The notes: a model not told the origin generated them from the letters alone. DNA of 64,000 nucleotides from an uncultured delta proteobacterium (GCA_963778655.1 CAVZVA010000009.1:906235-970234), one strand, 5' to 3'. Counted from the stretch's first letter, positions 8,300-62,929 are shown. Made by a program: numbers and translations.

Positions 8300-8351
8300 A
8301 TGATTGAAGCCAGTATCTCCTTCAACCCGTTCCTCCTGAGGCTTTGCTGCC

Positions 8352-10987: not shown

Positions 10988-11053
10988 GCGATTGACCGAG
11001 CGGTTGGGCCTGGCAAGATGCATGGCCGGAGCTCCCGCGGAGGAGATGCAAGC

Positions 11054-12076: not shown

Positions 12077-12091
12077 GGCGGTGCGGCGGCT

Positions 12092-30550: not shown

Positions 30551-30947
30551 GGCTCTCCTCGAACCCAGGGTGACGCGCAGCGTGGGCCCGACGTCGTGGC
30601 CGGCGCGAGCACGCCCGGCGCCGTGTCTGGCTCCACGTATGCGCGTGATGTGGGGAAGGGTAGTGGACGCGCGCGCCGTGGATCAAGGACGCGCGCGAGC
30701 AGGCGCGTTCGAAATTTAATTCAAAATTCGGCGCGGGCCGGCGCCCGCCCTTCGGGCGCCCTCGGGCGCCCTCCGCCGCAGCCTCGTGGCGATCGTCTAA
30801 CTCAATGAGATCGCACTCGTTTTTTCTCTTCGCCGGGTCCGCGAGATTCTGCTAAGGTACGCGCGATTGAAGCCGGGGCCGACCTGCACCGCAGGGGCGG
30901 CGCGGGCCCCCGGCGTGCTGCAGCGAGACGAGGTCGTGCCTCACACG

Positions 30948-31667: not shown

Positions 31668-31791
31668 CTGCCCGCCGCGCGGAGCCGGTGCCGCACGGGC
31701 GGCGTGCTTGACGGCCCGCGTCCAGCGTGGAAATGAGCGGGCGGGAGGGCCGCGTGACCCTGGCGGTCCCAAGAGCTTGGAGAGCAGGACG

Positions 31792-33493: not shown

Positions 33494-34699
<1,206 letters not shown>

Positions 34700-34811
34700 G
34701 GTCTTCTCCGAAAAGGGCACCGGCCGCGCCGGCCCGGGGGCCCGACTTTCCAAGCTCTAGCACACGGGGGCCCCGGCGCGGAGGCCTGCGCGGCCTGACG
34801 GGCGGGCGGCT

Positions 34812-41674: not shown

Positions 41675-41699
41675 GCGGCCGCAGCCCGCGCGGGCAGCA

Positions 41700-41742
41700 G
41701 GCCACGGCGCCGCAGCCCGCGCACGGGCGGGGCGCCGTGGCC
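41700..41742 (-). terminator. strong GC stem-loop between the DUF2330-like gene and the ABC importer operon
   Basis: A perfect 12-bp inverted repeat pairs ggccacggcgcc (41700-41711) with ggcgccgtggcc (41731-41742). The 19-nt loop can itself form a 5-bp inner stem (gcccg/cgggc). On the minus strand it lies about 30 nt after the stop at 41774. No U-tract follows, so its function (terminator or processing site) is uncertain. Confidence 0.3.
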
Positions 41743-41773
41743 TGCGCCCTCGCAGGCCGTCAGAACCAGTGCG

Positions 41774-43615: not shown

Positions 43616-43861
43616 TCGTGCTCTCCCTTGCATCCCGGTGTACCCGGGGCTGGGCCACGCCCTGTGGCACAGCCTGGCACAGCCCGCACCCAATCCTCCA
43701 AGCATACTGCAACCCCCATGCCAGCGCCCCGGCCGGCCTGAACCGCCCTGAGACAGGCGAACATACCGAAACAGTTCCGGGTTTCGCGCCTCGCAGCCGA
43801 TTGTCATCATCCGGCAACGGGCCGGTTTGGGGTCCGAGCCGCGCCGGCGCGGGAGGCGTTC

Positions 43862-45235: not shown

Positions 45236-45253
45236 CGCGGGGGCGTTCCGAGG

Positions 45254-48200
45254 CTACTCGGCCGCGCTTTCGCCCTCTTCGGCGATCCGCTCGTCGTGCT
45301 CGGCCGCGGGCTCGCCGTGCACGGCCACGCCGCTCTCCGCCCTGCGCGCGAACCCACTGCGCCCAGGCACGTGGATGCGCACTCGGCTGATCAGCGGGTG
45401 CGAGGAAGGGCGCTCGATCACGGCGGGCTCGGCGCGCTCGAGCTTGCGCTTCGGGAAGTCCAGCCAGTGGCGCTCGCGTTGGAAGGGATAGCTCGGCAGC
45501 GTGAGCTTGGCGCGCGGGTAGGGCGCGTCGAACGCGCGCCAGTCGATCTCGGCGCCGCGCGCGTAGAGCTGAGCTAGCGTGCCGAGCAGCGCGGCCCAGT
45601 CGTCGCCGCTTGCGCAGAGGGAGGGCAGGGCGAGCTCTGCAGGCCCCGGATCCGCGGCCGCCGCGGGGCCGAGCTCGAGGCAAATGTCCGCGTGCTCGCC
45701 GATCAGCGCCGGCACGCCGCCGGCTGCGGTGGGCTCGTGGTAGAGCTGGCGCGCCCAGTGCTCGGTGTTCGGCAGCTCGCCCGGCGCGAGCCAACCCCCG
45801 CGCCACGCGCTGGCCAGCGGGAGCTCGGGCGCTGCGTACTGAGCGGCGTCCAATGCGACGCGCAGCCCATGTACGGTCAGGCGCTGCGTGGCGCCCGGCG
45901 CCAGCCCTTCGAGCACGACCCCGCGGCGGGTCGCGAGCACCAGCGCCTGCTCCCACGACATCGCGCCTGCGGCGGCAGCGGCCGCGTATTCGCCCGCGCC
46001 CGAGCCGTAGACCGCGCTCGGCTCGAGCCCCCAGCTGCGCCACAGCGCGTGCAGCGCGTAGTGCAGCGCCAGAAGCGCGGCGTGGCCGTAGCTCGGACGG
46101 CAGAGCAACGCCGCGCGCTCGCTCTGGGGCGCGTGGTAGAGCGCGTCGAGCAGCGGGTGTTCCAGCTCCTGGGCAAGCACACGGTTGCAGTGCTCCAGGC
46201 TCTGGCGCAGCCGAGGGTGGGCCTGCCACAGCGCCAGGGCGGCACCGGGCGACACCACGCGCTGTGGAAAAGCGAACGCGACGCGCAGGCGCGCGCCCGG
46301 CTTGAGCACGCCGGCGTGCACGCCCGGGGCAGGCGCGCCGCCGGCGAAACGCTGCAGCGCTTCGCGCGCGTCGGCGGCATCGGCCGCGCTCACCCCCAGG
46401 CGGTGCGCGAAGTGGCTGCGGCCCACGCCCGCGGTGAAGCAGTAGTCTGCGAATAGCTCGGGCGGCGCGTGGGCCAGCGCGTGCCGCGTGCGCGCCGCGA
46501 GCTGGGACAGGGCTGCGGGCGTGCGCGCCGACAACACCAGCAAGTGGCGCGGCCGCTCGTGGTCGCAAGGGTGCACGCGCGCCGCGGGCGCCTCGCGCAG
46601 CACCACGTGTGCGTTGGTGCCGCCGAAGCCGAACGCGCTCAGCCCGGCGAAGCGCGGGCGCTCGCCGCGCCGCCAGGGCACGGCCAGAGTGGGGATCTCG
46701 AGCGGCAGCGCGTCGATGCCGATGTCGGGGTGCACGTCCCGCAGGTGCAAGTGAGGCGGGATCTCGGCGTGGTGCAGCGCCAGGGCGACCTTGATCAACG
46801 CGACCATACCGGAGGCGGCTTCGAGATGCCCGACGTTGGTCTTGGCCGAGCCCACCAGCAGCGGACGGCCCGGCGGGCGCCCCGCCATCACCTCGCCGAG
46901 CGCGCGCAGCTCGACCGCGTCGGCCACCGGGGTGCCCACGCCGTGACACTCGACGTAGTCGATCTCGTCCGCGCTGACCTCGGCCGAGCGGAGCGCCTGC
47001 TGCAGCAGCGCCTGCTGCGAGCGGCCGTTCGGCGCCAGCAGGCCGTTGCTGCGGCCGTCGTGGTTGACCGCGCCCCCCGCGAGCAGCGCGTAGACGCGGT
47101 CGCCGTCCGCCAGCGCGGCCGACAGCGGCTTGAGCACCACCACTCCGGCGCCCTCGCTGCGCACGAATCCATCCGCCCGGCTGTCGAAGCTCTTGCAGCG
47201 GCCGTCGCGGGATAGGGCGCGCGCGTGCGAGAAGTACACGCTCGCCTCCGGCGCGAGCACCACGTTGACGCCGCCCACGATGGCAAGCTCGCAGTCTAGC
47301 TCGCGCAGGCTGCGGCAGGCGTGCTGCAGCGCGACCAGCGAGGACGAGCAGGCGCTGTCGACGGTCTCGCTCGGACCCTTGAGGTCGAGGAAGTACGAGA
47401 GCCGGTTGGCGACGATGCTGGGCGCGTTGCCGGTGCCGTAGTCGGCGTCGATCATCTGCAGGTCGCCGCCATACAGCAGGCTGTACTCGCTGCCGCACAC
47501 GCCCGCGAACACACCGGTGGCGCTGCCCGCGAGCGCGGTGGGCGCCTGGCCCGCGTCCTCGAGCGCCTCCCACGCGACCTCCAGGAACATGCGCTGCTGC
47601 GGATCCAGGCGCGCCGCCTCGTGCGTGGAGATGCCGAAGAAGGCGGCGTCGAACGCATCCACTCCCTCGACGAAGCCGCCCCACTTGCTGCACATCTTGC
47701 CGCGGGCGCCGGGCTCGGGATCGTAGAGCGCGTCCGCGTCCCAACGCTCCGGCGGCACCTCGCTGATCGCATCGACCCCGTTGCGCAGCAGCTGCCAGAA
47801 GCCCTTGAGGTTGGGTGCGCCGGGGAAGCGACAGGCCATGCCCACGATCGCGATCGGCTCCTGTGCCCGCGCGCGCGCCCGCTGGCGCGGCGCGCGCACG
47901 GCCGGCGCGGAGGGCCGCGTGGCGGCGTCGCCGCCCGACAGAGCGCGCGCGAGATCGGCGATGGTCGGGTTGTCGTACGAGATGGTCGCGGGCAGCTGCG
48001 TGCCGAGCCACTGCTGCAGCTCCTCGGTCAGCTCGGCGGCGAGCAGCGAGTCCACGCCGTAGCGCGCGAGCGGCTCGCGCGGGTCGATCTCGCCGGCGTC
48101 GCGCTCGAGCTTCTCGGCCAGGCGCTCGCGCAGCCACTGGACGATGCGCTGCTCGCGCTGAAGCGCGGTCGGCCGGGTGAGCGTGCGAAACGGGGGCGCA

Positions 48201-50071
48201 TCGTCGCCGCCTTGGCTCTGTTCGACGGTTCGAGGCGGCGGTGCGTCGGCGCTGCGCTGCGGCCGTTCGCTCCAGCGAGGCGACGGCAGAGAGCCCGCTG
48301 AAGGCGCGGAGCTCTGGTCGCGCCCCCGGTCGGCACCCGCGAGCTGCCACGACGCCACCACCTGCAGGTCGCCGGCGAGGTAGGCCTGCCTGGTCGCGCG
48401 CCGCTGCACCTTGCCGCTCGAGGTTTTCAGCATGCTGCCGCGCTTGATCAGCACCAGTGCGGCCGGCGCCAGGTCGTGCGCCTCGCGGATCGCCTGCGCC
48501 GCGCCCCGCAGCAGCGCGTCCTGATCGGCGCCCAGCCGCTTGTCGAGCTCCTGCACCACCACCAGCTGCTCGCCCAGCTCGCCGTCGACGGAGAACGCCG
48601 CGCCGGCGTCCGCCACCAACGCCGCGTGCATGTCCTGCACCGTGCGCTCGATGTCCTGGGGGTAGTGGTTGCGCCCGCGCACGATGATCAGGTCCTTGAG
48701 CCGGCCAGTGATGAACAGCTCGCCCTCGTCGAAGAACCCGAGGTCGCCGGTGCGCAGAAAAGGCCCCTCGTGCGTATCCGCGGTGTGCGCGCGAAAGGTC
48801 CGCTCCGTCTCCTCGGGTCGATTCCAATACCCGAGCGCCACGGACCGGCTCTGCACCCAGATCTCCCCGACCCGCCCTTCCGGCAGCGTGCACAGCGTGT
48901 ACGGGTCGACGATCAAAATGCGCTCGTCGAGCAACGCATGCCCGCACCCGACCAGCGTGCGGGTCCGTGGCGCGGATTCGGACGGGCCGGCGACGCGCGC
49001 CGCGTGCCCCTGCTCCAGCTCGCCGGCATCATATGCGCGCACCAGAGGAGGCGACGCCGGATCGCCGCCCGAGATCATCAGGGTCGCTTCCGCCATGCCA
49101 TAGCAGGGGTACATGGCTTCGCGCCGCAGCCCGTGCGCGGCGAAGGCATGCGCGAAGCTCGCGATGGTCGAGGGTTTGATCGGCTCGGCGCCATTGCAGA
49201 CCACGCGCACCGAGGTGAGGTCGAGACCGACGCGGTCCCTGGCATCGATGCGGCGTAGGCACAGGTCGAAGGCGAAATTGGGAGCCATCAAGACGCTGGC
49301 CCGGTGGTGTTGGGCAGCGACAAGCCAGCGCTTGGGGCGGCGCACGAACGCCTGGGACGGCATCAACACGGCTCTGCCACCGACGTACAGCGCTTGGAAG
49401 ATGCCGCCCATCAGCCCCATGTCGTGGAACGGTGGCAACCAGCTGAGAAAGACGTCGTCCGCGGTCGTGGTGCTGCCGGCCCGGATGATCTCCTGGCCAG
49501 CGAGCAGCTGAGCGTTCGTCAGCAGCACACCCTTGGGCTCGGAGGTGGATCCCGACGTGTACTGGAGAATGGCGGGCCGCTCCGGCGCGGCGCCCACCAC
49601 GACGCCGCCCAAGGCGTCGCCCTGGACCGCGCTGGAGACGTCGACCAACGCGATCTCGCCGAGCGGGCGCTCCGCGTCTGCCGCCCAGCGCGCGCGCAAC
49701 TCACCGGTAGTCAGCGCGCTCTGCGCGCCCGAGTCCTGCGCGATCGCCCGAATCCGTTGCCAAGCCCGAGCCACGCCGCCTTTCCCCGGTGGGTATGCAG
49801 GCACCGCGATCGCGCCGGCGTACAGGCAGCCGAGCAGGGCGACGACGTAATCGAGGCCCTCCGGGCAGAGCACTAGCACGGCGCGGCCTTCTGCACCCAG
49901 CGAGATCAGGGCGGCACCTGCGGCCCGCGCACGCCGGTCCAGCGAGGCGTAGGTCAGCTCGACCGCCGCCGTAGCGGCTGAGTCGAGAAACGTATACGCC
50001 ACGCGATTGGGGTGCTGGCCGCTGTGCCGCTGCAATACGTCCAGCAGGGATTCATCAACAGCGACAGCCAT
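45254..50071 (-). CDS. hybrid loading/PKS module: fatty acyl-AMP ligase (FAAL) - ACP - KS - acyltransferase-like domain lacking the catalytic Ser
   Basis: FAAL motifs: ILQYTSGSTSEPKGVLLT, WLPPFHDMGL and LRTGDLGF. ACP: ARYGVDSLLAAELTEEL. KS: IAIVGMACRFPGA, DSACSSSLVAL (Cys codon 47348-47350), ECHGVGTPVADAVE and NVGHLEAASG. The AT-like region reads ...HAALLALHYALHALWRSWGLEPSAVYGSGAGEYAAAAAAG, with GSGAGE (45989-46006) where GHSxGE is expected. No carrier domain follows the AT-like region. Confidence 0.88.
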   Translation of the reverse strand: MAVAVDESLLDVLQRHSGQHPNRVAYTFLDSAATAAVELTYASLDRRARAAGAALISLGAEGRAVLVLCPEGLDYVVALLGCLYAGAIAVPAYPPGKGGVARAWQRIRAIAQDSGAQSALTTGELRARWAADAERPLGEIALVDVSSAVQGDALGGVVVGAAPERPAILQYTSGSTSEPKGVLLTNAQLLAGQEIIRAGSTTTADDVFLSWLPPFHDMGLMGGIFQALYVGGRAVLMPSQAFVRRPKRWLVAAQHHRASVLMAPNFAFDLCLRRIDARDRVGLDLTSVRVVCNGAEPIKPSTIASFAHAFAAHGLRREAMYPCYGMAEATLMISGGDPASPPLVRAYDAGELEQGHAARVAGPSESAPRTRTLVGCGHALLDERILIVDPYTLCTLPEGRVGEIWVQSRSVALGYWNRPEETERTFRAHTADTHEGPFLRTGDLGFFDEGELFITGRLKDLIIVRGRNHYPQDIERTVQDMHAALVADAGAAFSVDGELGEQLVVVQELDKRLGADQDALLRGAAQAIREAHDLAPAALVLIKRGSMLKTSSGKVQRRATRQAYLAGDLQVVASWQLAGADRGRDQSSAPSAGSLPSPRWSERPQRSADAPPPRTVEQSQGGDDAPPFRTLTRPTALQREQRIVQWLRERLAEKLERDAGEIDPREPLARYGVDSLLAAELTEELQQWLGTQLPATISYDNPTIADLARALSGGDAATRPSAPAVRAPRQRARARAQEPIAIVGMACRFPGAPNLKGFWQLLRNGVDAISEVPPERWDADALYDPEPGARGKMCSKWGGFVEGVDAFDAAFFGISTHEAARLDPQQRMFLEVAWEALEDAGQAPTALAGSATGVFAGVCGSEYSLLYGGDLQMIDADYGTGNAPSIVANRLSYFLDLKGPSETVDSACSSSLVALQHACRSLRELDCELAIVGGVNVVLAPEASVYFSHARALSRDGRCKSFDSRADGFVRSEGAGVVVLKPLSAALADGDRVYALLAGGAVNHDGRSNGLLAPNGRSQQALLQQALRSAEVSADEIDYVECHGVGTPVADAVELRALGEVMAGRPPGRPLLVGSAKTNVGHLEAASGMVALIKVALALHHAEIPPHLHLRDVHPDIGIDALPLEIPTLAVPWRRGERPRFAGLSAFGFGGTNAHVVLREAPAARVHPCDHERPRHLLVLSARTPAALSQLAARTRHALAHAPPELFADYCFTAGVGRSHFAHRLGVSAADAADAREALQRFAGGAPAPGVHAGVLKPGARLRVAFAFPQRVVSPGAALALWQAHPRLRQSLEHCNRVLAQELEHPLLDALYHAPQSERAALLCRPSYGHAALLALHYALHALWRSWGLEPSAVYGSGAGEYAAAAAAGAMSWEQALVLATRRGVVLEGLAPGATQRLTVHGLRVALDAAQYAAPELPLASAWRGGWLAPGELPNTEHWARQLYHEPTAAGGVPALIGEHADICLELGPAAAADPGPAELALPSLCASGDDWAALLGTLAQLYARGAEIDWRAFDAPYPRAKLTLPSYPFQRERHWLDFPKRKLERAEPAVIERPSSHPLISRVRIHVPGRSGFARRAESGVAVHGEPAAEHDERIAEEGESAAE

Positions 50072-50465
50072 AGACGCAGCCCGGCGAAGAAGCGCAGCCT
50101 AGCCTATCCGAAAGCTTGTTCGGAAAATGTTTCGATTTCGATTCTGGCTCGATGCTGACGGCGATCAGCCCCAGGTTGCAGACTAATTGCGTCGGCTCCG
50201 GAGCGCGTGAGCTCCGGCCGCCGCCCACTGACAGCGCCGAGTATCGGATCACAAGGGCCAGTTGGGACTCGAACATGTGTATAGCGAGGAGCTGAACGCG
50301 CGTGCGGGCTTCCGACTCTTGGCTAAAGAAGTTACGGGATTGGAGTGCCAAGCCCGGAGTCAAAGAGAGAGCTGGCAGCACCCCGGTGCGCGGGGAGTTG
50401 CGTACTCCATGACCGACCCGCGGCGGTTGTCCGTTGCGGGTCAGCGGCTACGTTGACCTAAGAAT

Positions 50466-53400
50466 ATGTCCGAGGATCGAGACCGACCTGCAGGCGCGCC
50501 GCCCCCGCGCAAACACCGGCACGACGCGGACGCGCCGTCGTTCATAGAGCTGGAGTGCGACGTAGCCCGCGCTGCCCTCGCCCTTCCCTCCGATGCACAC
50601 GGGCTGCTGGCGCTCGCAATCGCGCTCGATGCCGTGGCGGCCGGGGTGGCCGAAGTGCTCGGTATGCCCAAGGACTTGGCTTGCATCGACGTGGCGCCAG
50701 CTCTGTTCGAGCCGGGTGTGGTGACATTGAATGTCGGCGTCGACGTTCTCGAGTCCACCTTTCTCGTCAAGGCGAGTCGCGCTGGCGCGGGAGGGGAGCA
50801 ACTCACGATCGCCGCAATGGGCCGGCTCGAGGATCCTCGCGCCGCAGGCATCCCGCGCTTATCCATGATCCTGTCCCGCACCGGCGGGACGGTCGCGATC
50901 GAGCTCGACGCCGTCAGCAACGAGGGCCCCGGCGCCGAGCTCATCGCGCTGGAGCGAGCGTTGAGGCTCGCCGGAGAAGCCGCCGGATCCACGACGCGCC
51001 CGTGGGCACGGCCCGCGCACATCGCGCGGTTTTCGCAGGCGCCCAACCGGGCCGCGGTGGTCAGCATCCGCGCCGTGGCCGTCGAGCCCAACATGGCGTG
51101 GGTCACGTTGTTGGACGCGGAAGGAGCGCCGGCCGCTACCCTCGAAGGAGTCGACTTTGGCGATTCAGCAAGCGGGCGACAGGCCCTGCCGGCCCTGGTG
51201 ATGGAAGTCGCGCGCGCGACGCTCGGTGAGGCATTCGGCCCGAACGACAATTTGGTGCGCGCGGGCCTGGGGTCATTGGACATCCTGCGTCTGCTCGACG
51301 CGATCGAACACGCCTTCCACAGGCGCATCGGTCGTAACGCGTTCCTGCGTGACCCCACGCTCGCCGGTCTCGCGGCGTTGTGCGAGCTGGAAGCCTGCGC
51401 CGATCCCGCGTTCGACGCGCGGCTTTCCGAGGGGGAGCCGCGTCCGGCCCGCGCTGTCCCACTCACCACGGCCGAACGCCATCTGTGGCTGTTGGAGCAG
51501 AGCGGCACCCTCGCTGGAACCTACAACGAGCTGATCGTCTTTCGACTCGACGGCCGTCTCGACCGCGATGCTCTTTCAGCCGCGATGGCACAGGTCGTCC
51601 ACCGGCACCCTGGACTTCGCTCCGGGTTCCACGCGGAGGGCGCAGAGTTGCTGCGCAACGCGCTCATCCGGGCGATTCCCGACAGCCGGTTCCATGACTT
51701 CGCCTCGCTCGACCCGGAGGCCGCGCAACGCGCGGCGACCTCAGCCATCGCGGCCCACGCGTGTGAGCCGTTCGACCTGCACCGCGGTCCCCTGCTGCGC
51801 TGGATCAGCGTCAGGATGCCTGACGCCACGGATCTGCTCGCGCTGGTCGCTCATCATCTGGTGATCGACGAGTGGTCTCTCGGGAGGGTGCTGCTACCCG
51901 AGCTGTGCGACTTCTATCGTTTGCCCGCCGACGTACGACCGGAGCCCTCGCCAGCGCCGGCGAGCCTGCCCGACCGGGCGGCGCGCGAGGAAGCGTCCCG
52001 GACCGGATCGGCCTACGCGGCCTCGCTGGCTTGGTGGACGCGGTACCTGGACCAGGCGGTACAGCCTCTGCAGCTGTCGGCGGCTGCAGCGGCCGATGAG
52101 GGCGCCGGCTACGACGGGCACGTGGAGACATTTCCTCTGGACCCAGCTGCCATACAGCGGCTCGGTGCGCTTGCGAGGTCGGCGGGCGCAACACCGGCAT
52201 CCGGCGTCATGGCTGCATTGCAGCTCGTGCTCAATCGGCTGTGCGAGGAGGAGGTCTTCTGCATCGGCGTCTTCTGCGCCGGGCGAGATCTCGTCGCCGA
52301 CGCCGGCGAGGTGGGGTATTACGCCAACCTACTTCCCGTCCGCGCTGATCTGAGGGGCGAGCCGAGCGTCGCGGAGCTCATCGCGCGCGTGCACGAGAAT
52401 ATGAGCGGCGTGCTCGCCCATTCGAGGGTGCCCTTTGCCGAGATTGCGCAAGCGGCGCGCCGCGCTGGTGGGTCGTCTTCTGCCGCGGGGCTGGTGCAGG
52501 TGGTCTTCGCCCAGGACGATCTCCCCGACCGGTTGGAGCTAGGCTCTCTGCGGGCGACGCGAATCGGCCTGGACAAGGGGCGTGCCAAGTTCGAGCTCAC
52601 CGTCACCACGCGGCTCGGCGGTGCCGCCCGGGCGCCGACCATGACGTGGGAATACCGCACCGGCATCCTCGACGGCGACAGCGTACGGAGGCTCGCCCAG
52701 TTGCTGGGGGCCTCCATCGATTGGATGTCCAAGAACCCGGAAAGCTCGATCTCGAACGTCGAGCTGCTCAGCTCCCGACAAGCCTCGGCCGTGATCGCGC
52801 GCGGTTCGGGACCGCAGAGCGCCCTTCCGCTCAAGCGTGTGTCGCAGATGATTGTCGAACAGGCAGCCTGCACCCCCGACGAGATTGCGGCCGTCTCGCA
52901 CGCGAAGAGCCTTTCGTACCGAGACATTGAGAGGGGCAGTCGGGCGCTTGCGGCTGCTGTCCATCGAGCCGGCGTGCGGCCGGGCAGCTTCGTGGGCGTT
53001 GCGTTGGAGCGTGGGGTCGAGCTGCCGATGGCGCTTCTCGCCGTCCTGCGCGCGGGTTGTGCCTATGTTCCACTCGACCTGGACCAACCGCCCGATCGTT
53101 TGCGGTGGATCGTTCGGGATGCAGGCGTCAGCGCCGTGCTTTCGTCTGGTGGCAGCGCGCGGCGGACGCTCTCGGAGCTGATCCACGTGGATGTCCCCGC
53201 CGGCGTTGTCGAGGAAGAGTTGCTTCCTCTCGACGAGGGGCAACTCTCGATCGAGGACGTTGCGTATGCGATCTACACCTCGGGTTCCACCGGACAACCA
53301 AAGGGGGTGCTGGTCAGACACGCGGGAGTTTCGAACGTGTTTCACGGTGTCGCGGAGCGCTTGGGGCGGCACGAGTCCAGCGTTTGGCTCGCGGTCACGA

Positions 53401-55784
53401 GCCTTGCGTTCGACATCGCTGCTCTCGAGCTGCTGTGGCCGCTGTGTTTCGGAGGGGTCGTCGCTGTCGATCCGGGACTCGCCGCCGACCAGCCGGACGC
53501 GCAGGATTGGCCCGGCCGGCTCGCGGAGGTGGGCCTTCCGCAAGGAGTCACGCACCTGCAGTGCACTCCGACCGGCCTCGCAATGTTGCTTCGCACGGCC
53601 GAGGGCCGTGCGCTGTTGCGCGGCGTGCGCGAGCTCATGATCGGCGGTGAGGTCCTTTCTCCGGCGCTCGTCGGGCGAGCGCGCTCCGCCGGCAGCGCCC
53701 GGATCTGGAACATGTACGGGCCCACGGAGACGACCATCTGGTCCTCGATGCACGAGGTGGGTCGGGTGGAAGGCCCGGTTCCCATCGGGCTTCCGCTGCG
53801 CAACACGCGGTTCTACGTGCTCGATCGCCGCGGCCGCCTAGCGCCCGACGGGCTGCCTGGAGAGCTCTGCATCGCAGGCAGAGGCGTGGCCAAGGGCTAC
53901 GTCGGGCAGCGGCCCGAGGGCGATTCGGTCTTCGTCCGAGATCCGTTTCAGCCAGGCGCGAGCGGGCCGATGTACCGAACCGGCGATCGAGTCCGATGGA
54001 ATGCGGACGGCGAGCTGGAGTTCCTCGGTCGCTACGACGGCCAGATCAAGATGCGCGGGTTTCGAATTGAGCCCGCCGAGATCGAGGAGGTTTTGCTCCG
54101 GCACCCGTGCGTGAGGCTGTGCGCGGTGGTCGTCCACCGACTTGCTGGCCGTGACCAGTTGGTCGCGTTCGTCGAGTTGCAGCAACCAGGCGTCGAGCTC
54201 GGCGAGCTGCGCCGGCATGCGGAGGGGTTTCTGCCTCGCTACATGGTCCCTCATGCATTCGTGGTTCGCGATGCGTTGCCGACACTTTCGAGCGGCAAGA
54301 TCGATCGCAAGAGCCTGGCGCTCGCAGCCCCAGATGCGACGCGATCCATCGTCCACCGGGAGCCGGCCACGGCACTCGAGGCGGCGCTGCTGCGGATTTG
54401 GAGAGAGGAGCTCGTTGCGCCGGCGGTCGGCGTCGACGAGGACTTTGCAGACGCAGGAGGCGACTCGCTGCTCGCGCTACCGTTGCTCGCCCGTCTGCGC
54501 AGCGAGCTCGGACAAGCAGTCACATTGCCACTCCTTCTGGAGAACCCGACGGTGGCGAAGCTCGCGATGGCTCTGGAACGAAGTGCTCGTATCGGGCCTG
54601 AAGCATCGTCTATGGCCCCCGGCGATGCGGTGGGAACGAGGAGCAATGCGAAGATTCTCGACAGGGCGCTTGACCAAGGGCTAGACGGGCCGGTGATTGC
54701 CGCCGCCTTGGCCACGGTTCCGGACGCAATGCTTCCTCACGTCGCGGACGCGAGCTGGAGAGGTTCTCCGATGTGGGTCGCATCCCTGCACACGGATTGG
54801 GGAACGCTGGCGCTCCTGACCCTGCCTGTCGCTGACTCCGAGGTCTACGACGAGCGCGGGCGGCTCCAGGCGCGATGCCAGGATGCGCTCGTGCTGGCTT
54901 CGGAGCTCGGGGCCAAGACGGTGTCGCTCACCGGGCTCACGGCCTCTGCCACGGGTTACGGCCGTTTGCTCAGTGTGCCCGACGAGCGCATCAAGATCAC
55001 GACTGGGCACGCGACCACCTGCGGTGCGGTGGTTCTCACCCTCGCTGGACTGCTGCGAGAGACGGGTCGCCGCATCGACGAGGAGAGGCTCGCCATCGTC
55101 GGTTTGGGCTCCATGGGGCATGGTGTCATGCGCCTGCTACTCGCGCTGGGAATGCATCCCAAATCGCTGGTGCTGGCGGATACGCCGGCGCGAGCATCCC
55201 GTCTGCTGAGAATCGAAGCGGAAGCCAGAAGCCTGGGCTACCTCGGCGAAGCGATGTGCTGCTCGGCCGGAGCGCACGCCAGCCACAAGATATATGCGGC
55301 GACCGCGGTCGTCGGAGCAACGAACGTCGGCGGAGTCCTCGATGTTGCCCGCTTGCCAGCGGGTTGCCTGGTCGTAGACGACTCCGCACCTCACTGCTTT
55401 TCGGTCACGGCCGCGTTCGAGCGCATGAGAGTGCAGAGGGACGTTCTGTTTACGGGCGCAGGCGTGTTGCGCTGCCCGGAGCGCGTCGGGATCAAGGTGA
55501 GCCCGAGCTGGCCCGACCGCTCAGGGCACTCGATCGTCGCCGCCTTCGGTCCGGCCGCCGAAGAGATTCCGGCTTGCATGTTGTCGAGCCTGATGACGAC
55601 GGTGGCGCCTTCGGAGGCGGTGGCCACCGTCGGCGAGGCGCAACTCGAAGCCTTGCTGGGCCATTACCGATGGCTGACTGCGCATCACGTCGGGCACGCC
55701 TCGTTTCACCTTCAGAGCCAGGCTATCGCAACCGCGGACCTCGTCGAGTTCGCCCGCAGATTCGGACACCGGCTGGTCCTCTGA
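50466..55784 (+). CDS. NRPS module with an N-terminal unknown domain and carrier protein: X - ACP - C - A - PCP - acyl-ACP-reductase-like terminal domain
   Basis: Carrier 1: LVRAGLGSLDILRLLDAIE (Ser codon 51273-51275). C domain: HHLVIDEWS (51852-). A domain: YAIYTSGSTGQPKGV, NMYGPTETT, YRTGDRVRW and GRYDGQIKMRGFRIE. PCP: DAGGDSLLALPLLARL (Ser codon 54465-54467). The C-terminal ~400 aa has ITTGHATTCG, the Rossmann segment IVGLGSMGHGV, and IPACMLSS (Cys codon 55575-55577). Confidence 0.88.
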   Translation: MSEDRDRPAGAPPPRKHRHDADAPSFIELECDVARAALALPSDAHGLLALAIALDAVAAGVAEVLGMPKDLACIDVAPALFEPGVVTLNVGVDVLESTFLVKASRAGAGGEQLTIAAMGRLEDPRAAGIPRLSMILSRTGGTVAIELDAVSNEGPGAELIALERALRLAGEAAGSTTRPWARPAHIARFSQAPNRAAVVSIRAVAVEPNMAWVTLLDAEGAPAATLEGVDFGDSASGRQALPALVMEVARATLGEAFGPNDNLVRAGLGSLDILRLLDAIEHAFHRRIGRNAFLRDPTLAGLAALCELEACADPAFDARLSEGEPRPARAVPLTTAERHLWLLEQSGTLAGTYNELIVFRLDGRLDRDALSAAMAQVVHRHPGLRSGFHAEGAELLRNALIRAIPDSRFHDFASLDPEAAQRAATSAIAAHACEPFDLHRGPLLRWISVRMPDATDLLALVAHHLVIDEWSLGRVLLPELCDFYRLPADVRPEPSPAPASLPDRAAREEASRTGSAYAASLAWWTRYLDQAVQPLQLSAAAAADEGAGYDGHVETFPLDPAAIQRLGALARSAGATPASGVMAALQLVLNRLCEEEVFCIGVFCAGRDLVADAGEVGYYANLLPVRADLRGEPSVAELIARVHENMSGVLAHSRVPFAEIAQAARRAGGSSSAAGLVQVVFAQDDLPDRLELGSLRATRIGLDKGRAKFELTVTTRLGGAARAPTMTWEYRTGILDGDSVRRLAQLLGASIDWMSKNPESSISNVELLSSRQASAVIARGSGPQSALPLKRVSQMIVEQAACTPDEIAAVSHAKSLSYRDIERGSRALAAAVHRAGVRPGSFVGVALERGVELPMALLAVLRAGCAYVPLDLDQPPDRLRWIVRDAGVSAVLSSGGSARRTLSELIHVDVPAGVVEEELLPLDEGQLSIEDVAYAIYTSGSTGQPKGVLVRHAGVSNVFHGVAERLGRHESSVWLAVTSLAFDIAALELLWPLCFGGVVAVDPGLAADQPDAQDWPGRLAEVGLPQGVTHLQCTPTGLAMLLRTAEGRALLRGVRELMIGGEVLSPALVGRARSAGSARIWNMYGPTETTIWSSMHEVGRVEGPVPIGLPLRNTRFYVLDRRGRLAPDGLPGELCIAGRGVAKGYVGQRPEGDSVFVRDPFQPGASGPMYRTGDRVRWNADGELEFLGRYDGQIKMRGFRIEPAEIEEVLLRHPCVRLCAVVVHRLAGRDQLVAFVELQQPGVELGELRRHAEGFLPRYMVPHAFVVRDALPTLSSGKIDRKSLALAAPDATRSIVHREPATALEAALLRIWREELVAPAVGVDEDFADAGGDSLLALPLLARLRSELGQAVTLPLLLENPTVAKLAMALERSARIGPEASSMAPGDAVGTRSNAKILDRALDQGLDGPVIAAALATVPDAMLPHVADASWRGSPMWVASLHTDWGTLALLTLPVADSEVYDERGRLQARCQDALVLASELGAKTVSLTGLTASATGYGRLLSVPDERIKITTGHATTCGAVVLTLAGLLRETGRRIDEERLAIVGLGSMGHGVMRLLLALGMHPKSLVLADTPARASRLLRIEAEARSLGYLGEAMCCSAGAHASHKIYAATAVVGATNVGGVLDVARLPAGCLVVDDSAPHCFSVTAAFERMRVQRDVLFTGAGVLRCPERVGIKVSPSWPDRSGHSIVAAFGPAAEEIPACMLSSLMTTVAPSEAVATVGEAQLEALLGHYRWLTAHHVGHASFHLQSQAIATADLVEFARRFGHRLVL

Positions 55785-55861
55785 AGCAACTTCCAGGGCG
55801 GACCAGAGCCAGTGGCGTTTCCCCTGCGATCGGCGATTCGAATCGCCTCACCAGCAGCGGC

Positions 55862-58800
55862 TCAGGACCGATCTTGCGTGGGGTGGGCAAATCCAGGTGC
55901 GTAGGTGGCGACCCACCGCTCCGGGTGCTTGACCCCCTGCGCCCTCAGGGCCGCATCCACGGCGTCGATCTCTCGTGTCCCATCGAGGCCGCCTCTCATC
56001 GCTCCGCGGTTCCGCCGAGCGTACAAGGTGAAGAGCGGCATCTGGCTGCGGTCGCAAGTCGCTACTGCCTCGTCGAGAAGCTGGAGCGCGTGCTCCTTCC
56101 GGCCCTCGATCCGAGCGATCCCCGCACGCGCAATCAGCGACCAGGCCTTCGCGTCCGTCCGGCCCATGTGTTGCAGCGTGGTGGCCTGCTCGCGGGCGAC
56201 GCGAAGCGCCTTCAAGACGTCCCCGCCCCCTTGAGCGGCGCCGAGGGCGGCGCGCGCCAGAAACCAGTGTCCGAGCACCCGGATCGGCAGCGCCCGAAAC
56301 AGGAGACTGTGTTGGAACGCCTCCCAATGCGAAAGGTGATGGGCCAGCGCATCGGAGCCGCGACCGCAGTACAGGTGGACGTCGACGGTGCGGTGGACTC
56401 CCCACAGTCGCAGCGTCGTGAACTCGCCGGTCGCCAGGTCGCGTTGCTCCCGCAGGATTTCTAGCGCTGAGGAAGGGTCGTCGGCCATCAGCCGCGATGC
56501 GGGCACCGCCAACGCCAGGAAACCTCGCGAGAAGTGATCATCGCGCTCCAGCGCTTGGCGGGCCAGATCAGGCGCCTCGCGTGCCACCTCGAGCAAGCTG
56601 CCGGTCTGCTCGATCGCCCCCAGACGGAAGGTCGTGAGTAGATTCTGTTCCCAGGAGGTGCCCGGGCAGTAATTGCGAAAGGTCTCCAGCGCTTCCGAAG
56701 CAGGCGCCAAGGCGTCGGCGAAACGAGCGAAGAAGAACTCGCAGCCGGCTCGTGCCATTTGCGCGGTGGCGTGTGCGTAAGGTGTGCCGACCGTGGACGC
56801 GACCTCCTCCGTGCGCGCCAGTAGCGCTCGAGTACGGGCCTCGTTTCGGGAGCCGCCGATCAGGGCGGCGTCGAATGCTTCCCATGCCAAACCGAGCAGC
56901 AGCCGGTTCGGCTCGCCAGCGCGCAGCACCTCGCTCAGATAGCGCCGCTGGAGCGCGGCCCCGCGAAGCGCATCGATCGCGGAAAGCTCGCGAAACACTG
57001 AGCCGAGCACGTCGACTCGCTCGACAATGAAAGGCGGAACATCGCGGGCGTTGCGCAGGCCCGTATCGAGCCCACGCACGGCGATCGACAACTTGCTCCA
57101 CATCAGCGTGCCGAGCACCGCTGCCGTGCTGCGAGGCCAGGCGACGCCGACGCCCCTCAGAAGCTCTTTGGTGAGGGCCACGCCCTCCTCGATTCTCCCG
57201 CTGCGCAGGTACTGCTGGGCGGCCATCCGCTGCAGAGCTCGCGCTTCCGCCCCTTCGAGCCCCTCCGCCGCCTGCAGGTACGCTTCCGCCGCTTGTGCGC
57301 CGCGGCCGGCGTTGGCGAGGGCGTCACCCAGGTGCTTGTGCAGCTCGCGCCCGGTCGCGTCATCGGGCGGGACGAGGTCGATCGCCTTGCGGAACAGGTC
57401 CGCAGCGCGGTTGAAGGCGAGCTTGGCCGCCGCGGCGTGGGCCGCTTGCATGGCGGTCTCGCCAGCACGGCCGCCGTCGCCGGCCCCGCTGTAATGCACG
57501 ACCAGACGTTCGGGGTCGCCCACGTCGTGGTGCTCCATCGCGTCCGCGATGTGAGCGTGGATGTTGCGCACCACGTCCGGATGCAAGTTGCGCACGACGG
57601 TTTCGCGCACGCGGTCGTGGTAGGTCTCTGCGCGGTCGGTCTGACGCGTGCCGCGGGTCCGAATCAGCCGGGCCGCCCGCAGCGCCAGCAGGGCCGAGCG
57701 GTCGCCGGTCTGTAGCGCCGCCGCCTCGATCGCGACGCCCTGCTCGAGCGGTCCCGCGGCCACGCTGAGCACGCGCAACAGGCGCTGCGCGTCTTCGGGC
57801 ATGCCGGCGATGCGCTCGAGGATGACCTGGTCGAGCGAGACCGGCTGGGCGGCCAGCGCGAAGTGACCCTGCTCGGAATGGGTCTTGAGGTGATGGACCA
57901 GCTCGGCGATGAAGAATGGGACGCCCTCGGCCTCGGCGGCGACGGTCTCGGCGAGCAGCCCACCGGCCTCGCCCAGCTCGCGCAGCAGCGCGGATGCCAG
58001 CTGTCGGGCCTCGTCCTCGCCGAGCGCGTCGACCGCCAGCTCGCGCACCTCGGCCGAGCCCTCGCGCAAGCTGCGCTCGCCGACGATGTGCTGCAGAAAT
58101 GGGCTGTTGTCGGCCTCGTCCCGGCGGTAGGTGCCGACCAGGAGCAAGGGCGGCGGCTCCGGCGGTCCCATCAAGAAGGCCATCAATCGGGCGCTGTCCA
58201 TATCCGCCCACTGCAGGTCGTCGATGTTCAGCACTAGCGGCTGGTAGTCGGTGATGCGCAGCAACAGATCTTTGAGCGCGGCAAACGCCTGGTTGCGCAG
58301 CTCGCGCGCGTCGGTGGTCTGCTTCTGCGAGCGGCGGGCATGGGCGACGGCCTTGACGCGCTTGAGCACCGGAAACAGCAGCGCCAGCGAGTGCACATTG
58401 CGCGGCAAGAGCTCGGCAGCCTGCTCGGCCGGCAAGCGCATCATGTAGCGGCTGAGCGCGTCGATGATGTTGTCGAAGGCTTTGTAGGGCACGTTTTCGC
58501 GCTCGTAGCAGCGACCGCGCAGCACCACCGCCTCGTCGGAGCGGATCAGCTCGTTGGCGAAGCAGCGGACCAGCGCGCTCTTGCCCATGCCCGACAGGCC
58601 GTGCACGAACACCGTGACCGGCTTGCGATTGCGGCTGACCTCGAAGGCGTCGCGCAGCTCCGTCAGGTGCTGCTCGCGTCCGACGAACAGCTCTCCCTGT
58701 TTGCGGATTACGGCCGACGCCTGAGCGTCGAAGACTGGGGGCGGCACCGAGTGACCGGTCAGGTAGCGCAGGATCTCGCTGCCACTCGGGCGCTGCGTGG

Positions 58801-59698
58801 GATCGCGGTGCAGCAGGTCGCGGCAGAGCTGATCGAGATCATCCGGCACACCCTTGACCAGGTCGCTCGGCGGCACCGGCTCGGCTTCGTTCTTGAGTCG
58901 CAGGATCTCCAGCACCGTGCCGTCGAACGGCAGCTGGCCCGTGAGCGCCTCGTACAGCATGCAGCCGACCGCGTACCAGTCGCTGGCTGTGGAGATGGCG
59001 TCGCCCGCGGCCTGCTCGGGTGACATGTACGCGGGCGTTCCGAACACGCAGCCTCCGACCGAGCGCTCGGCGTCCTGAGCTTCCACCTCGACCAGCGTGC
59101 TGCTGCTGACCAGCCCGAAGTCGAGCACGACCACGCGTCCTTCGGGCGTCACCAGCACGTTGCTCGGCTTGAGATCGCGGTGCAGCTTGCCCGCGTCGTG
59201 CAAGGCCGCGACCGCTTCCACCAGCTGGCGCAGCGCGTGGCGCAGGCGCTTGACGTTCGCCGTCACGTGCGGCAGCGGGAACTCGCTGCCGATGGCGCGC
59301 TGGCTGAGCGTGATCGAGACGTCGCGCATGAAGCGCCCGGCGAGCGTCGGCGCCTTCCAGCGCTCGGGCGGATCGCTGCCGCCGCGCGACTCGGTCACGT
59401 ATGCGTCGAAGCTCTGTCCCTCCACCAGCTCCATGGTGAAGAACCACAGCCCGCCCTCGTTGCACAGCTCGTGCAGCGTCACGAGGTTGGGGTGGCTCAG
59501 GTCGGCGAGCTGGCGGAACTCGTTCTTGAGCCGGTAGATGTTGATGGCGTCGCGCTGGCTCAACGCCTTGAGCGCGACCCGCGCGTTGCGCTCGAGATCG
59601 AGCGCCTGGTAGACCACGCCCATACCGCCTTGTCCGAGCTGGCGCTCGATTACGAAGCGCTTGGTGCTCAGGAAGCTGTGGGCGGCTTGGGGCTGCAT
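55862..59698 (-). CDS. Ser/Thr protein kinase fused to AAA/STAND NTPase and TPR-like region, paralogue 3
   Basis: Kinase motifs: GQGGMGVVYQA, VALKAL, HRDLKPSNV, DFG and TPAYMSPEQ. The Walker A is canonical (HGLSGMGKSALV) and the Walker B-like segment is LVLNIDDLQWAD. A long helical C-terminus follows. Confidence 0.9.
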   Translation of the reverse strand: MQPQAAHSFLSTKRFVIERQLGQGGMGVVYQALDLERNARVALKALSQRDAINIYRLKNEFRQLADLSHPNLVTLHELCNEGGLWFFTMELVEGQSFDAYVTESRGGSDPPERWKAPTLAGRFMRDVSITLSQRAIGSEFPLPHVTANVKRLRHALRQLVEAVAALHDAGKLHRDLKPSNVLVTPEGRVVVLDFGLVSSSTLVEVEAQDAERSVGGCVFGTPAYMSPEQAAGDAISTASDWYAVGCMLYEALTGQLPFDGTVLEILRLKNEAEPVPPSDLVKGVPDDLDQLCRDLLHRDPTQRPSGSEILRYLTGHSVPPPVFDAQASAVIRKQGELFVGREQHLTELRDAFEVSRNRKPVTVFVHGLSGMGKSALVRCFANELIRSDEAVVLRGRCYERENVPYKAFDNIIDALSRYMMRLPAEQAAELLPRNVHSLALLFPVLKRVKAVAHARRSQKQTTDARELRNQAFAALKDLLLRITDYQPLVLNIDDLQWADMDSARLMAFLMGPPEPPPLLLVGTYRRDEADNSPFLQHIVGERSLREGSAEVRELAVDALGEDEARQLASALLRELGEAGGLLAETVAAEAEGVPFFIAELVHHLKTHSEQGHFALAAQPVSLDQVILERIAGMPEDAQRLLRVLSVAAGPLEQGVAIEAAALQTGDRSALLALRAARLIRTRGTRQTDRAETYHDRVRETVVRNLHPDVVRNIHAHIADAMEHHDVGDPERLVVHYSGAGDGGRAGETAMQAAHAAAAKLAFNRAADLFRKAIDLVPPDDATGRELHKHLGDALANAGRGAQAAEAYLQAAEGLEGAEARALQRMAAQQYLRSGRIEEGVALTKELLRGVGVAWPRSTAAVLGTLMWSKLSIAVRGLDTGLRNARDVPPFIVERVDVLGSVFRELSAIDALRGAALQRRYLSEVLRAGEPNRLLLGLAWEAFDAALIGGSRNEARTRALLARTEEVASTVGTPYAHATAQMARAGCEFFFARFADALAPASEALETFRNYCPGTSWEQNLLTTFRLGAIEQTGSLLEVAREAPDLARQALERDDHFSRGFLALAVPASRLMADDPSSALEILREQRDLATGEFTTLRLWGVHRTVDVHLYCGRGSDALAHHLSHWEAFQHSLLFRALPIRVLGHWFLARAALGAAQGGGDVLKALRVAREQATTLQHMGRTDAKAWSLIARAGIARIEGRKEHALQLLDEAVATCDRSQMPLFTLYARRNRGAMRGGLDGTREIDAVDAALRAQGVKHPERWVATYAPGFAHPTQDRS

Positions 59699-61372: not shown

Positions 61373-62557
61373 TCAACAGATTTCGAACAGCCCGGCGGCA
61401 CCCATACCGCCGCCGATGCACATGGTGACGACCGCGTATTTGGCCTTGCGCCGCTGGCCCTCGATCAACGCGTGGCCGGTCATGCGCGAGCCGCTCATGC
61501 CGTAGGGGTGGCCGATCGCGATCGCGCCGCCGTTGACGTTCAGGCGCTCCATCGGGATGCCGAGCTTGTCGCGGCAGTAGATCACCTGCACCGCAAACGC
61601 CTCGTTGAGCTCCCACAGGTCGATGTCGTCGACCTTCAAGCCGTTGCGCTTGAGCAACTTGGGGATCGCGAATACCGGTCCGATGCCCATCTCGTCGGGC
61701 TCGCAGCCGGCCACTGCCAGCCCGCGGTACAGCCCCAGCGGCGAAAGCCCGCGCTTGGCGGCCAGCGAGCGCTCCATCAGCACGCAGGCCGAAGCCCCGT
61801 CCGAGAGCTGGCTGGCGTTGCCGGCGGTGATGAAGCCACCTTCGCCGCGCACCGGCTTGAGGCTCGCCAGCCCCTTCAGGCTGGTGTCGGGCCGGTTGCC
61901 CTCGTCGCGGGTCAGCGTGACCTGCTCGTAGCTGACCGCCTTGGTCTCCTTGTTCACGTTCGCGCGCGTGGTCGCAAGCGGCACGATCTCGGCGTCGAGC
62001 TTTCCTTCGCGCTGCGCGGCCGCGATGCGCATCTGGCTCTGGTAGGAGTACTCGTCCTGCGGCTCGCGCCCGATCTTGTAGCGCTTGGAGACGATCTCGG
62101 CGGTGTCGATCATCGGCAGGTAGAGCTCGGGCTTGGTCTTCAGCAGCTGCGGGTCCTGCGCCCGGTAGCGGTTCTGGTGCTCGTTCTGCACCAGGCTGAT
62201 CGAGTCGATTCCGCCTCCCACCATCACGTCGACGCCGTCGCACACGATGGTCTTGGCTGCGGTCGCGATCGCCATCAGCCCCGAGGAGCACTGGCGATCG
62301 ACGCTCATGCCTGCGGTGGTCACGGGCAGCCCTGCAGCCAGCGCGCACTGGCGCGCGACGTTGAAACCCTGCGTGCCCTGTTGCAGCGCGGCTCCCATGA
62401 TCACGTCCTCGACTTCCTGCGGATCGAGGCGGGCGCGCTTGACCGCCTCGCGGATCACGTGCCCGCCGAGGCTGGGCGATTCAGTGTTGTTGAAGGCGCC
62501 GCGAAACGCCTTGCCGATCGGCGTGCGGGCGGTGGACACGATCACGGCTTCTCTCAT
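61373..62557 (-). CDS. acetyl-CoA acetyltransferase (thiolase II-like)
   Basis: ATG 62557 gives [22 protein letters not shown]. Thiolase motifs: [12 protein letters not shown] (Cys), [18 protein letters not shown] (His) and CIGGGMG (Cys). The ORF-track start at 62776 adds a spurious leader. Confidence 0.92.
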
Positions 62558-62929
62558 CGTGGGCTCCAATCTTTCGAGACGTTCGGGTGCTCGGCGGTCG
62601 AGCTTCGCGAACGTAGCGAGTCGTCCGCGATTCGCAACAAGGACGCGGCACGGCGCGGTCGCCGGGACCCGGGGCACACCCGGCCATTTTGAAATTTTCC
62701 ATGTAGGGAGCACGGCAGCAGGCATCCGCTGGCCCCGGAGTCGATCGTCCTTGCGCGCCTGCCGGCCCGGGGCCAATTGCGAGCGGACTCACCGCCGAGC
62801 GCAAAAGTCATTTCCTTCGTCCCCGCGGCTCCCTATGCTGGGCGACCCTGTCTTCGGGGGGGGCCTCGGAGCGGCCGCGTTGTGCGCTCCGATCCGAATC
62901 AACCGCACGCCGCGATTGTCTGTGGCTCG

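Follow-up and report, generated by a model that had tools for sequence, protein, structure and literature searches.

The closest described systems are the last nonribosomal peptide synthetase (NRPS) modules of three pathways, CarI for carmabin, VatR for vatiamide E/F and HcaD for hectoramide B. According to a preprint (Rankin et al., bioRxiv 10.1101/2024.10.28.620694), each of them ends in a 400-aa domain named the putative terminal amidation domain (TAD), and all three products carry a terminal primary amide. Here we consider how the C-terminal domain of an NRPS from an uncultured delta proteobacterium compares with these systems. The DNA analysed is a stretch of 64,000 nucleotides (GCA_963778655.1 CAVZVA010000009.1:906235-970234), called the window below; the NRPS gene lies at 50466..55784 (+), has 1772 codons from ATG to TGA, and its exact protein is present in a public cluster collection as P0102. 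The domain of interest, aa 1393-1772 (54642..55781, +), runs to the stop codon.

The published crystal structures (PDB 9E4S, 9E4U, 9E4X, 9E50 and 9E56, released in February 2025) are described as a macrodomain-like N-lobe followed by a Rossmann C-lobe. The CarI domain binds NAD(H) and not NADP(H); its invariant Cys2238 adjoins the nicotinamide at the start of a helix, and the phosphopantetheine of the peptidyl carrier protein (PCP) reaches this residue, as shown by BMOE crosslinking and the formation of a dephospho-CoA (dPCoA) disulfide. The closest known structure is the cyanobacterial acyl-ACP reductase (AAR), in which Cys294 is spatially equivalent to Cys2238, and 757 homologues were counted across bacterial phyla, mostly at NRPS C-termini (Rankin et al.). 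In the library searched, the term TAD is used in the 2024 preprint only, and a search for AAR-like release domains of NRPSs brought up nothing further. The N-domain of PigE and the C-domain of PtTamH are AAR-like thioester reductases fused to transaminases; that of PtTamH is NADH-specific and accepts carrier-bound substrate only.

The domain in the window is a new, divergent member of the published TAD family and not a new kind of domain. A preliminary inspection of the DNA (hereafter the sequence-only reading) had presented an AAR-like release domain fused to an NRPS as an unusual idea; this part does not survive, since the TADs of CarI, VatR and HcaD have already been published with crystal structures. 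In more specific terms, aa 1393-1772 quite likely form a two-lobed, AAR-like domain of this family, NAD(H)-binding by homology, which replaces a thioesterase (TE) as the chain-release domain. When phmmer was run against all PDB chains, the two best matches were nearly identical (E = 8e-52 and 1e-51) and came from entries 9E4S, 9E4U, 9E4X, 9E50 and 9E56; with the CarI chain 9e4s_A (E = 8e-52) the alignment takes query residues 52-392 to chain residues 70-417, 341 residues in all. The family profile scores 563 bits against the same CarI chains. An AlphaFold2 (AF2) model of the terminal domain, built on 80 homologues, reached pLDDT 89.7 and pTM 0.90. Its ten best Foldseek matches in the PDB are all entitled "TAD from Carmabin Biosynthetic Pathway" (TM 0.82-0.89, lowest E = 6e-38), and its superposition on 9e4s_A gives E = 6e-38, TM 0.87/0.82 and rmsd 2.8 over 390 columns. 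Seven cyanobacterial AAR chains follow (6JZU, 6JZY, 6JZQ and 6JZZ; E = 3e-15 to 1e-12, TM 0.61-0.75), headed by 6jzu_A with E = 3e-15 and TM 0.61/0.70; the remaining matches are generic Rossmann dehydrogenases with TMq < 0.4 and TMt <= 0.5. According to the model, the fold is two-lobed as in the TAD, a macrodomain-like N-lobe being joined to a Rossmann C-lobe. The approximate limits, transferred from CarI by alignment, are ~1393-1513 for the N-lobe and ~1514-1671 plus 1700-1772 for the C-lobe, from which an excursion at ~1672-1699 returns into the N-lobe.

To map the residues, the domain was aligned to CarI and to sets of 80 to 221 relatives, MAFFT being used for the 221-member set together with AAR. 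Every published TAD signature is present in the window domain. The TTGH motif (aa 1512-1515; 54999..55010, +) corresponds to CarI Thr2042-Thr-Gly2044, the motif at the lobe junction that positions the catalytic Cys (Rankin et al.); its Gly1514 and His1515 are invariant (221/221 relatives). The dinucleotide-binding P-loop GxGxxG appears as GLGSMG (aa 1546-1551; 55101..55118, +), equivalent to CarI 2076-2081. Asp1572 (55179..55181, +) corresponds to CarI Asp2102, which is reported to bind the adenosine ribose hydroxyls and to select NAD(H) over NADP(H) and CoA; the column contains D in 218 and E in 3 of the 221 relatives, and the residue would imply NAD(H) selectivity of the window domain as well. 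The loop VDDSAPHCF (aa 1637-1645; 55374..55400, +), with DDSAP at 1638-1642, brings Asp1639 into the place of CarI Asp2170, which stacks on the nicotinamide from a DDSG-cisPro loop and, as the authors argue, favours NAD+; here the relatives have D (219) or E (2 of 221). Within this loop Ala1641 replaces CarI Gly2172, Ala being the majority residue of the family (51/80 relatives). A second conserved cysteine, Cys1644, stands in PHCF just after the DDSxP loop (C in 195/221 relatives).

The putative acyl-accepting catalytic cysteine is Cys1704 (55575..55577, +), equivalent to CarI Cys2238 and aligned by MAFFT with AAR Cys294. It is kept in all 221 relatives; in a first alignment of 80 sequences it was found in 78, the two exceptions being unalignable around the site and looking garbled or truncated. 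His1515 is replaced by Asn in AAR and PigE, and Asp1639 by Gly in AAR and by Val in PigE, and these two residues mark the domain as TAD-type rather than reductase-type. Among the window ORFs (open reading frames) scanned with Pfam, none has a TE, an SDR (short-chain dehydrogenase/reductase) R domain or an aminotransferase. Taken jointly, membership of the TAD family with an intact nucleotide site and release that depends on cysteine, through acyl transfer to Cys1704, appear highly probable.

The relation to AAR was the central point of the sequence-only reading, and much of it stands. The peptides GAKTVSLTGLTASA, ITTGHATTCGAV, LAIVGLGSMGHGV and EIPACMLSSLM, on which it relied, all occur in the translation, and the codon of the Cys (TGC) lies at 55575-55577, where that reading had placed it. 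Its four motif correspondences with AAR were reproduced: a hidden Markov model (HMM) of the TAD family spans AAR 77-175 and covers the first three, aligning AAR GIDISALGGFTS with GAKTVSLTGL, FTTGN with ITTGH and VAVVGATGDIGSAV with LAIVGLGSMGHGV, while MAFFT places AAR QMFAC(294)FAEAML on EIPAC(1704)MLSSLM. Two HMM alignments of AAR, one of them with the PDB chain, agree in length, coordinates and bit score. Homology to AAR at the level of the fold was borne out by the AlphaFold/Foldseek comparison (6JZU, E = 3e-15; TM 0.61-0.75), and the equivalence of Cys1704 with AAR Cys294 likewise, with no loss of this residue among the relatives. The domain is also found where a release domain would be expected, after the last PCP at the end of the NRPS, and it is indeed neither a TE nor an R domain of the short-chain dehydrogenase/reductase (SDR) type: aa ~1368-1772 match no Pfam family, PF07993 (SDR R domain) and PF00975 (TE) included, and give only sub-threshold Rossmann matches around 1532-1564; GxSxG, TGxxGxxG and YxxxK are all absent from the last 397 aa (1376-1772) in a regular-expression search, in which the only GxGxxG is GLGSMG at 1546-1551. 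The proposed span of 54600-55784 has to be shortened: the terminal domain is real, but its ordered part starts at about aa 1393 (nt 54642), and position 54600 falls within the linker between the PCP and the domain.

The assignment to the AAR or glutamyl-tRNA reductase (GluTR) family by HMM could not be upheld. The long-chain AAR model TIGR04058 (cutoff 449.7 bits) gives no match to the window domain at E <= 10; among eight TADs it matches two, at E = 0.014 and ~15 bits. The sequence-level link to AAR is weak, with E = 0.03 in a PDB-wide profile search and an identity of ~15%. Membership of the AAR family was rejected on the absence of a TIGR04058 match, the fusion to an NRPS, and the presence of TTGH and D-D-S where AAR has TTGN and D-G-G. 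For GluTR, no GlutR_N or Shikimate_DH match was obtained from Pfam at E <= 1, and the structure 5che_A covers only 164 Rossmann columns with TMq 0.28. A fusion of the PigE/TamH type was likewise rejected: the PigE model NCBIfam NF053554 matches the window domain at 45.9 bits, the equivalog cutoff being 850 bits, and there is no aminotransferase in this open reading frame (ORF) or in the other ORFs of the window that were scanned. The SbnB family of NAD+-dependent C-N cleaving dehydrogenases matches seven of the eight TADs in the Rossmann region only, at 18-19 bits against a cutoff of 327, and was rejected as generic; an NCBIfam match to it was not found for the window domain itself.

Upstream of the TAD, Pfam and NCBIfam give the NRPS the order orphan N-terminus, carrier, condensation (C) domain, adenylation (A) domain of the Gly type, and PCP. 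The first carrier, of the acyl carrier protein (ACP) or PCP kind, occupies aa 247-305 (51204..51380, +; Pfam PP-binding, E = 4.5e-8), and its phosphopantetheine serine is probably Ser270 within GLGSLD. The C domain (aa 330-774; 51453..52787, +; PF00668, E = 4.5e-50) has HHLVIDE at 463-469. The A domain (aa 798-1278; 52857..54299, +; Pfam AMP-binding and AMP-binding_C, and NCBIfam) has the ten-residue specificity code DILQMGMIWK. Its best solved relative is the second module of LgrA (residues 1224-1712, E = 5e-162), ahead of the next match (3e-103) by ~60 orders of magnitude; we take this LgrA module to be glycine-activating, with DILQLGLIWK as the glycine code. For the terminal A domain, glycine specificity is predicted. 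The terminal PCP (aa 1307-1367; 54384..54566, +; PF00550, E = 5e-21) carries Ser1334 in GGDSLL, and is followed by a linker at aa 1368-1392 (54567..54641, +), which is predicted to be disordered (AF2 pLDDT < 50 at model residues 1-17); CarI has a 26-residue linker in the same place (Rankin et al.).

The N-terminal region of the NRPS (aa 1-242; 50466..51191, +) has no detected family: no Pfam, PDB or homologue match was obtained for it. A GC content at third codon positions (GC3) of 0.80 fits coding sequence. At the equivalent place of two relatives with the same architecture, L050/P0171 and P0230, PS-DH/PKS_DH_N is matched; the N-terminus of the window NRPS could not be aligned with the dehydratase (DH)-like N-terminus of L050. 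A single-sequence AF2 model is unusable (pLDDT 41); its low-confidence secondary structure, a helix plus beta-sheet occurring twice, is compatible with a degenerate double hot-dog fold. The region may be a degenerate remnant of a DH-like domain, of the double hot-dog kind, from a polyketide synthase (PKS).

We presume the following course of chain release. A protein encoded divergently from the NRPS, with FAAL, ACP and ketosynthase (KS) domains, would hand over to the first carrier an acyl chain of fatty or polyketide type, and the C domain would join this chain to the Gly that the A domain is expected to load on the terminal PCP. By homology, and by the CarI crosslinking and dPCoA structures, the phosphopantetheine arm of the PCP would then carry the N-acyl-glycyl thioester down the nucleotide tunnel, where the acyl group would be transferred to Cys1704 as in the first half-reaction of AAR. 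Attack by nitrogen would resolve the Cys1704 thioester and give a primary amide, N-acyl-glycinamide; His1515, Asp1639 and the bound NAD may take part in this last step.

For amidation as the release chemistry of the window domain we consider the chances to be even, its sole basis being that, in three cyanobacterial pathways closely related to one another, an assembly line ending in a TAD goes with a product ending in an amide. Several considerations weigh against it. The three TADs with amide products are 85-95% identical to one another (Rankin et al.), so that the correlation is effectively one data point; the window domain is only 32-35% identical to them. According to the preprint, no TAD has shown release activity in vitro: neither NAD(H) nor metals, ammonia or any of the 20 amino acids brought about offloading from the loaded PCPs of CarI and VatR. 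A Pfam scan of the window ORFs, which leaves 3.6-8.3 and 9.8-14.1 kb unannotated, found no gene that could supply nitrogen (glutaminase, NAD synthetase or aminotransferase). The closest biochemically characterised homologues (AAR, the PigE N-domain and the thioester reductase domain of PtTamH) are all thioester reductases; moreover, the score of the window domain with the PigE model, 45.9 bits, is above the 27.8-32.8 bits of the three other TADs that were tabulated individually.

A rival reading is a reductive release of the AAR, PigE and TamH kind, in which the chain on Cys1704 would be reduced by NADH to an N-acyl-aminoacetaldehyde. Given a 3-oxo group in the chain, ring closure of this aldehyde in a Knoevenagel condensation could yield a pyrrolinone. 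The fold and the position of the catalytic Cys are shared with AAR, and the homology to the thioester-reductase domain of PigE is significant (NF053554, E = 2.7e-12, profile positions 66-276 of 837; structure 4PPM, E = 2e-5 in a PDB sequence search). The NAD selectivity suggested by Asp1572 does not argue against reduction, because the PtTamH reductase domain is itself specific for NADH and acts only on carrier-bound acyl chains. The affinity of the CarI TAD is slightly higher for NADH than for NAD+ (Kd 3.5 vs 11.6 uM), and its authors, who name no nitrogen donor for any TAD, list among the possibilities a route that reduces the thioester, adds nitrogen and re-oxidises (Rankin et al.). Nevertheless, the three pathways of known product are reported to yield amides, not aldehydes, alcohols or amines, and the loaded substrate mimics were not released by NADH in vitro. 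The nicotinamide-stacking position is a conserved acidic residue (Asp1639) where AAR has Gly and PigE has Val, and in the authors' argument an Asp there favours NAD+; His1515 occupies the place of an Asn in AAR and PigE; and neither a partner aminotransferase nor an aldehyde-processing enzyme was found near the gene in the scanned ORFs. We regard simple reductive release as unlikely. The sequence-only reading had proposed reduction to an aldehyde through a Cys-acyl intermediate: the equivalent Cys is kept, but the three characterised TAD pathways give primary amides and the TAD-specific His1515 and Asp1639 are present. For the divergent, non-cyanobacterial clade with the architecture [DH-like]-carrier-C-A-PCP-TAD, paired with a FAAL-KS protein and a conserved kinase, we think it rather improbable that the domain does not amidate at all and is instead an NADH-dependent, Cys-mediated reductive release domain built into the NRPS, or, more generally, that TAD chemistry runs by way of an aldehyde intermediate. 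If either were true, there would be a second, AAR-type class of reductive off-loading domains of NRPSs beside the SDR-type R domains.

The Gly-type code of the terminal A domain suggests another possibility, namely that the terminal Gly is cleaved oxidatively. The C-alpha-N bond would be dehydrogenated with NAD+, and hydrolysis would leave the upstream primary amide and glyoxylyl-S-PCP, which is the outcome of the myxothiazol MtaG route without the oxygenase. A terminal Gly-loading module is what the known glycine-extension and cleavage route to amides employs, and an NAD-selective domain (by homology) with an Asp that should favour the oxidised cofactor agrees with such a reaction. The residue loaded by the TAD module is, however, retained in carmabin, vatiamide and hectoramide (Rankin et al.), and only ~8 of ~100 TAD-terminated modules have Gly-type codes. 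The invariant Cys would have no obvious role, and the SbnB-family matches mentioned above are confined to the Rossmann region at 18-19 bits. We consider this reading very improbable.

Another point concerns the state of the gene. It could be supposed that the domain is degenerate or purely structural, the product being released spontaneously or by an enzyme encoded elsewhere. The preprint's account of TADs, in which none shows activity, would be in line with this, and so would two features of the gene itself: its GC3 (0.79) is below that of its neighbours (0.86-0.90), and the NRPS has diverged further from its syntenic orthologue (36% identity) than the PKS (50%) or the kinase (61%) encoded beside it. 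On the other hand, the ORF is intact over 1772 codons, the C, A and PCP domains keep all their core motifs, and every TAD signature residue is retained although the identity to any relative does not exceed 40%, from which we conclude that the active site is under purifying selection. A mere remnant is therefore hardly to be expected.

The syntenic orthologue belongs to L050, a locus from a metagenome-assembled genome (MAG) of a permafrost "Proteobacteria"; its positions 59-14033 have the same three-gene arrangement as 45254-59698 of the window. The first gene (45254..50071, -), divergent from the NRPS, encodes a PKS of 1605 aa with the Pfam order FAAL-ACP-KS-AT-like, AT standing for acyltransferase; the third (55862..59698, -), convergent with the NRPS, encodes a Ser/Thr kinase of 1278 aa with AAA_16. 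The kinases of the two genomes share 61% identity over 1270 aa. The cassette of FAAL-PKS, NRPS-TAD and kinase, shared by the window and this distant MAG, has diverged very unevenly. L050 likewise keeps every TAD signature, including the unusual Ala-Cys in place of Gly-Cys. The KS of the window PKS keeps its Cys/His/His in a motif search. Its AT-like region (aa ~1265-1605; 45254-46300, -) reads GSGAGE in place of GHSxGE, and that of L050 reads GQGVGE; since the serine nucleophile is absent from both orthologues, the AT is probably inactive, and malonyl loading would occur in trans. The protein ends right after a stretch YPFQRERHW...HPLISRV that resembles the beginning of a DH domain. This FAAL-ACP-KS-AT-like protein is the probable source of the acyl chain joined to Gly.

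The family to which the domain belongs is large. Among 1.84 billion cluster representatives (at 50% identity), HMMER found 786 clusters at E <= 1e-3, of which 328 reach E <= 1e-30. In the majority of TAD clusters the domain stands at the C-terminus of proteins of 1000-4000 aa, and in most of the 786 it directly follows a PCP. Apart from P0102, which is the protein itself, the nearest relative has 40% identity, and at the ~65% network threshold of the TAD paper the window domain would be a singleton. In a neighbour-joining tree rooted on AAR it is nested within the family and forms a small clade together with P0001, P0126, P0171 and P0230; of these, P0171 and P0230 are full length and have the same architecture, [PS-DH-like]-carrier-C-A-PCP-TAD. 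A scan of the GTDB species representatives gave 156 TAD loci, with hosts among cyanobacteria, Chloroflexota, Clostridia, Archangium, Streptomyces, Planctomycetota, Akkermansia, Entotheonella and others. Modules that end in a TAD have A-domain codes of many kinds (Asp/Asn-like, Ser, Thr, Tyr, Pro, Cys, Orn and Gly), which suggests that a TAD acts at the thioester carbonyl whatever the residue, and not on a side chain. In Archangium gephyra (L053, 6650-11131) a protein of ~1500 aa consists of a FAAL, an ACP, ~450 aa with no Pfam match and then a TAD, with no NRPS module, and similar ORFs occur in L037, L041, L056, L072 and L074. These proteins show that a TAD can also stand behind a simple acyl-ACP, in a way similar to the SDR reductase of FAAL-ACP-R proteins.

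Further genes of the window can be described briefly. Directly downstream of the PKS gene and on the same strand, 39817-45253 (-) encodes a DUF2330 protein of 1159 aa, a permease of the FecCD family and an ABC ATPase; the set may point to an import system of the metallophore type that goes with the cluster. At 24262-28560 (+), 34761-38669 (+) and 55862-59698 (-) the window encodes large Ser/Thr kinases, three in all, each with an ATPase domain of the AAA_16/STAND type; together with a GC content of ~69% and the relatives from Archangium and "Proteobacteria", they suggest a genome of the myxobacterial type. At the left edge of the window (371-3583, +) a KS and a KS-like protein resembling a chain-length factor form a pair followed by an SDR ketoreductase, that is, a discrete set similar to type II fatty acid or polyketide synthases. 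A fatty-acid hydroxylase family protein is found at 30801-32910 (+) beside an unusually long ORF (495 aa from stop to stop) that resembles aspartate-semialdehyde dehydrogenase, and thiolases are encoded at 33494-34756 and 61373-62788.

We believe that the value of the locus is that of a tractable system for TAD chemistry, in which a divergent member of the family occurs in a new host lineage and in a compact cluster, and not that of a new domain class. TADs are a widespread alternative to the TE (~330 strong representative clusters at E <= 1e-30) whose reaction has never been reconstituted. The locus would make a small test system, with two megasynthase genes, a single Gly-loading module and a syntenic orthologue for comparison; because there is only this one module, the acyl-glycyl thioester substrate is simple to synthesise. 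The identity of the product would show whether TADs amidate, and with what source of nitrogen, or reduce thioesters, and for the engineering of peptides with C-terminal amides a release domain with a defined amidating function would be of use. That the relationship to AAR was recognised from the raw sequence is, in effect, a rediscovery of a published domain.

It remains to set the window domain beside the known systems that perform a comparable task. SDR-type R domains (PF07993) and type I TE domains take the same place in the assembly line and do the same off-loading job, but their folds and motifs are unrelated, and SDR-type R domains reduce the phosphopantetheine thioester directly, without a covalent Cys intermediate. 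The glycine-extension and monooxygenase route (myxothiazol MtaG; also sarpeptin and zwittermicin) likewise arrives at primary amides through a terminal Gly-loading NRPS module. That route requires an embedded monooxygenase, a domain that Pfam did not find in the window NRPS, and it differs from the TAD pathways, whose products retain the last residue (Rankin et al.).

AAR (TIGR04058; 6JZU, 6JZQ and 6JZY) has a homologous fold, colinear motifs and an equivalent catalytic Cys, and presumably shares the first half-reaction, the transfer of the acyl group from the phosphopantetheine thioester to Cys. It is, however, a stand-alone, NADPH-using protein of ~340 aa that partners with ADO, whereas the window domain is part of an NRPS. 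At the positions of His1515 and Asp1639 AAR has Asn and Gly, and several elements of the TAD, namely the first strand and helix, the dimer interface and the excursion from the C-lobe, are absent from the AAR N-lobe (Rankin et al.). The closest family with demonstrated activity comprises the PigE N-domain (prodigiosin), the PtTamH C-domain (tambjamine) and fusions of the KecF type, which act on carrier-bound thioesters in secondary metabolism, with NADH in the case of PtTamH. These are fused to a class III aminotransferase that aminates the resulting aldehydes, and the scanned ORFs of the window contain no such enzyme.

With the TADs of CarI, VatR and HcaD the likeness is the most complete: the position (~400 aa at the very end, behind the terminal module's PCP and without a TE), the fold and the signatures are the same. 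The differences are those of a distant relative. The identity is only 32-35%; beside conserved residues the window domain has Ala1571 for Cys, Ala1703 for Gly and Ala1641 for the Gly of CarI; and, unlike the three, it ends a Gly-loading terminal module in a minimal system of a FAAL-PKS and a one-module NRPS. The hosts of CarI, VatR and HcaD are marine cyanobacteria, whereas the host here has a high GC content and is probably a myxobacterium.

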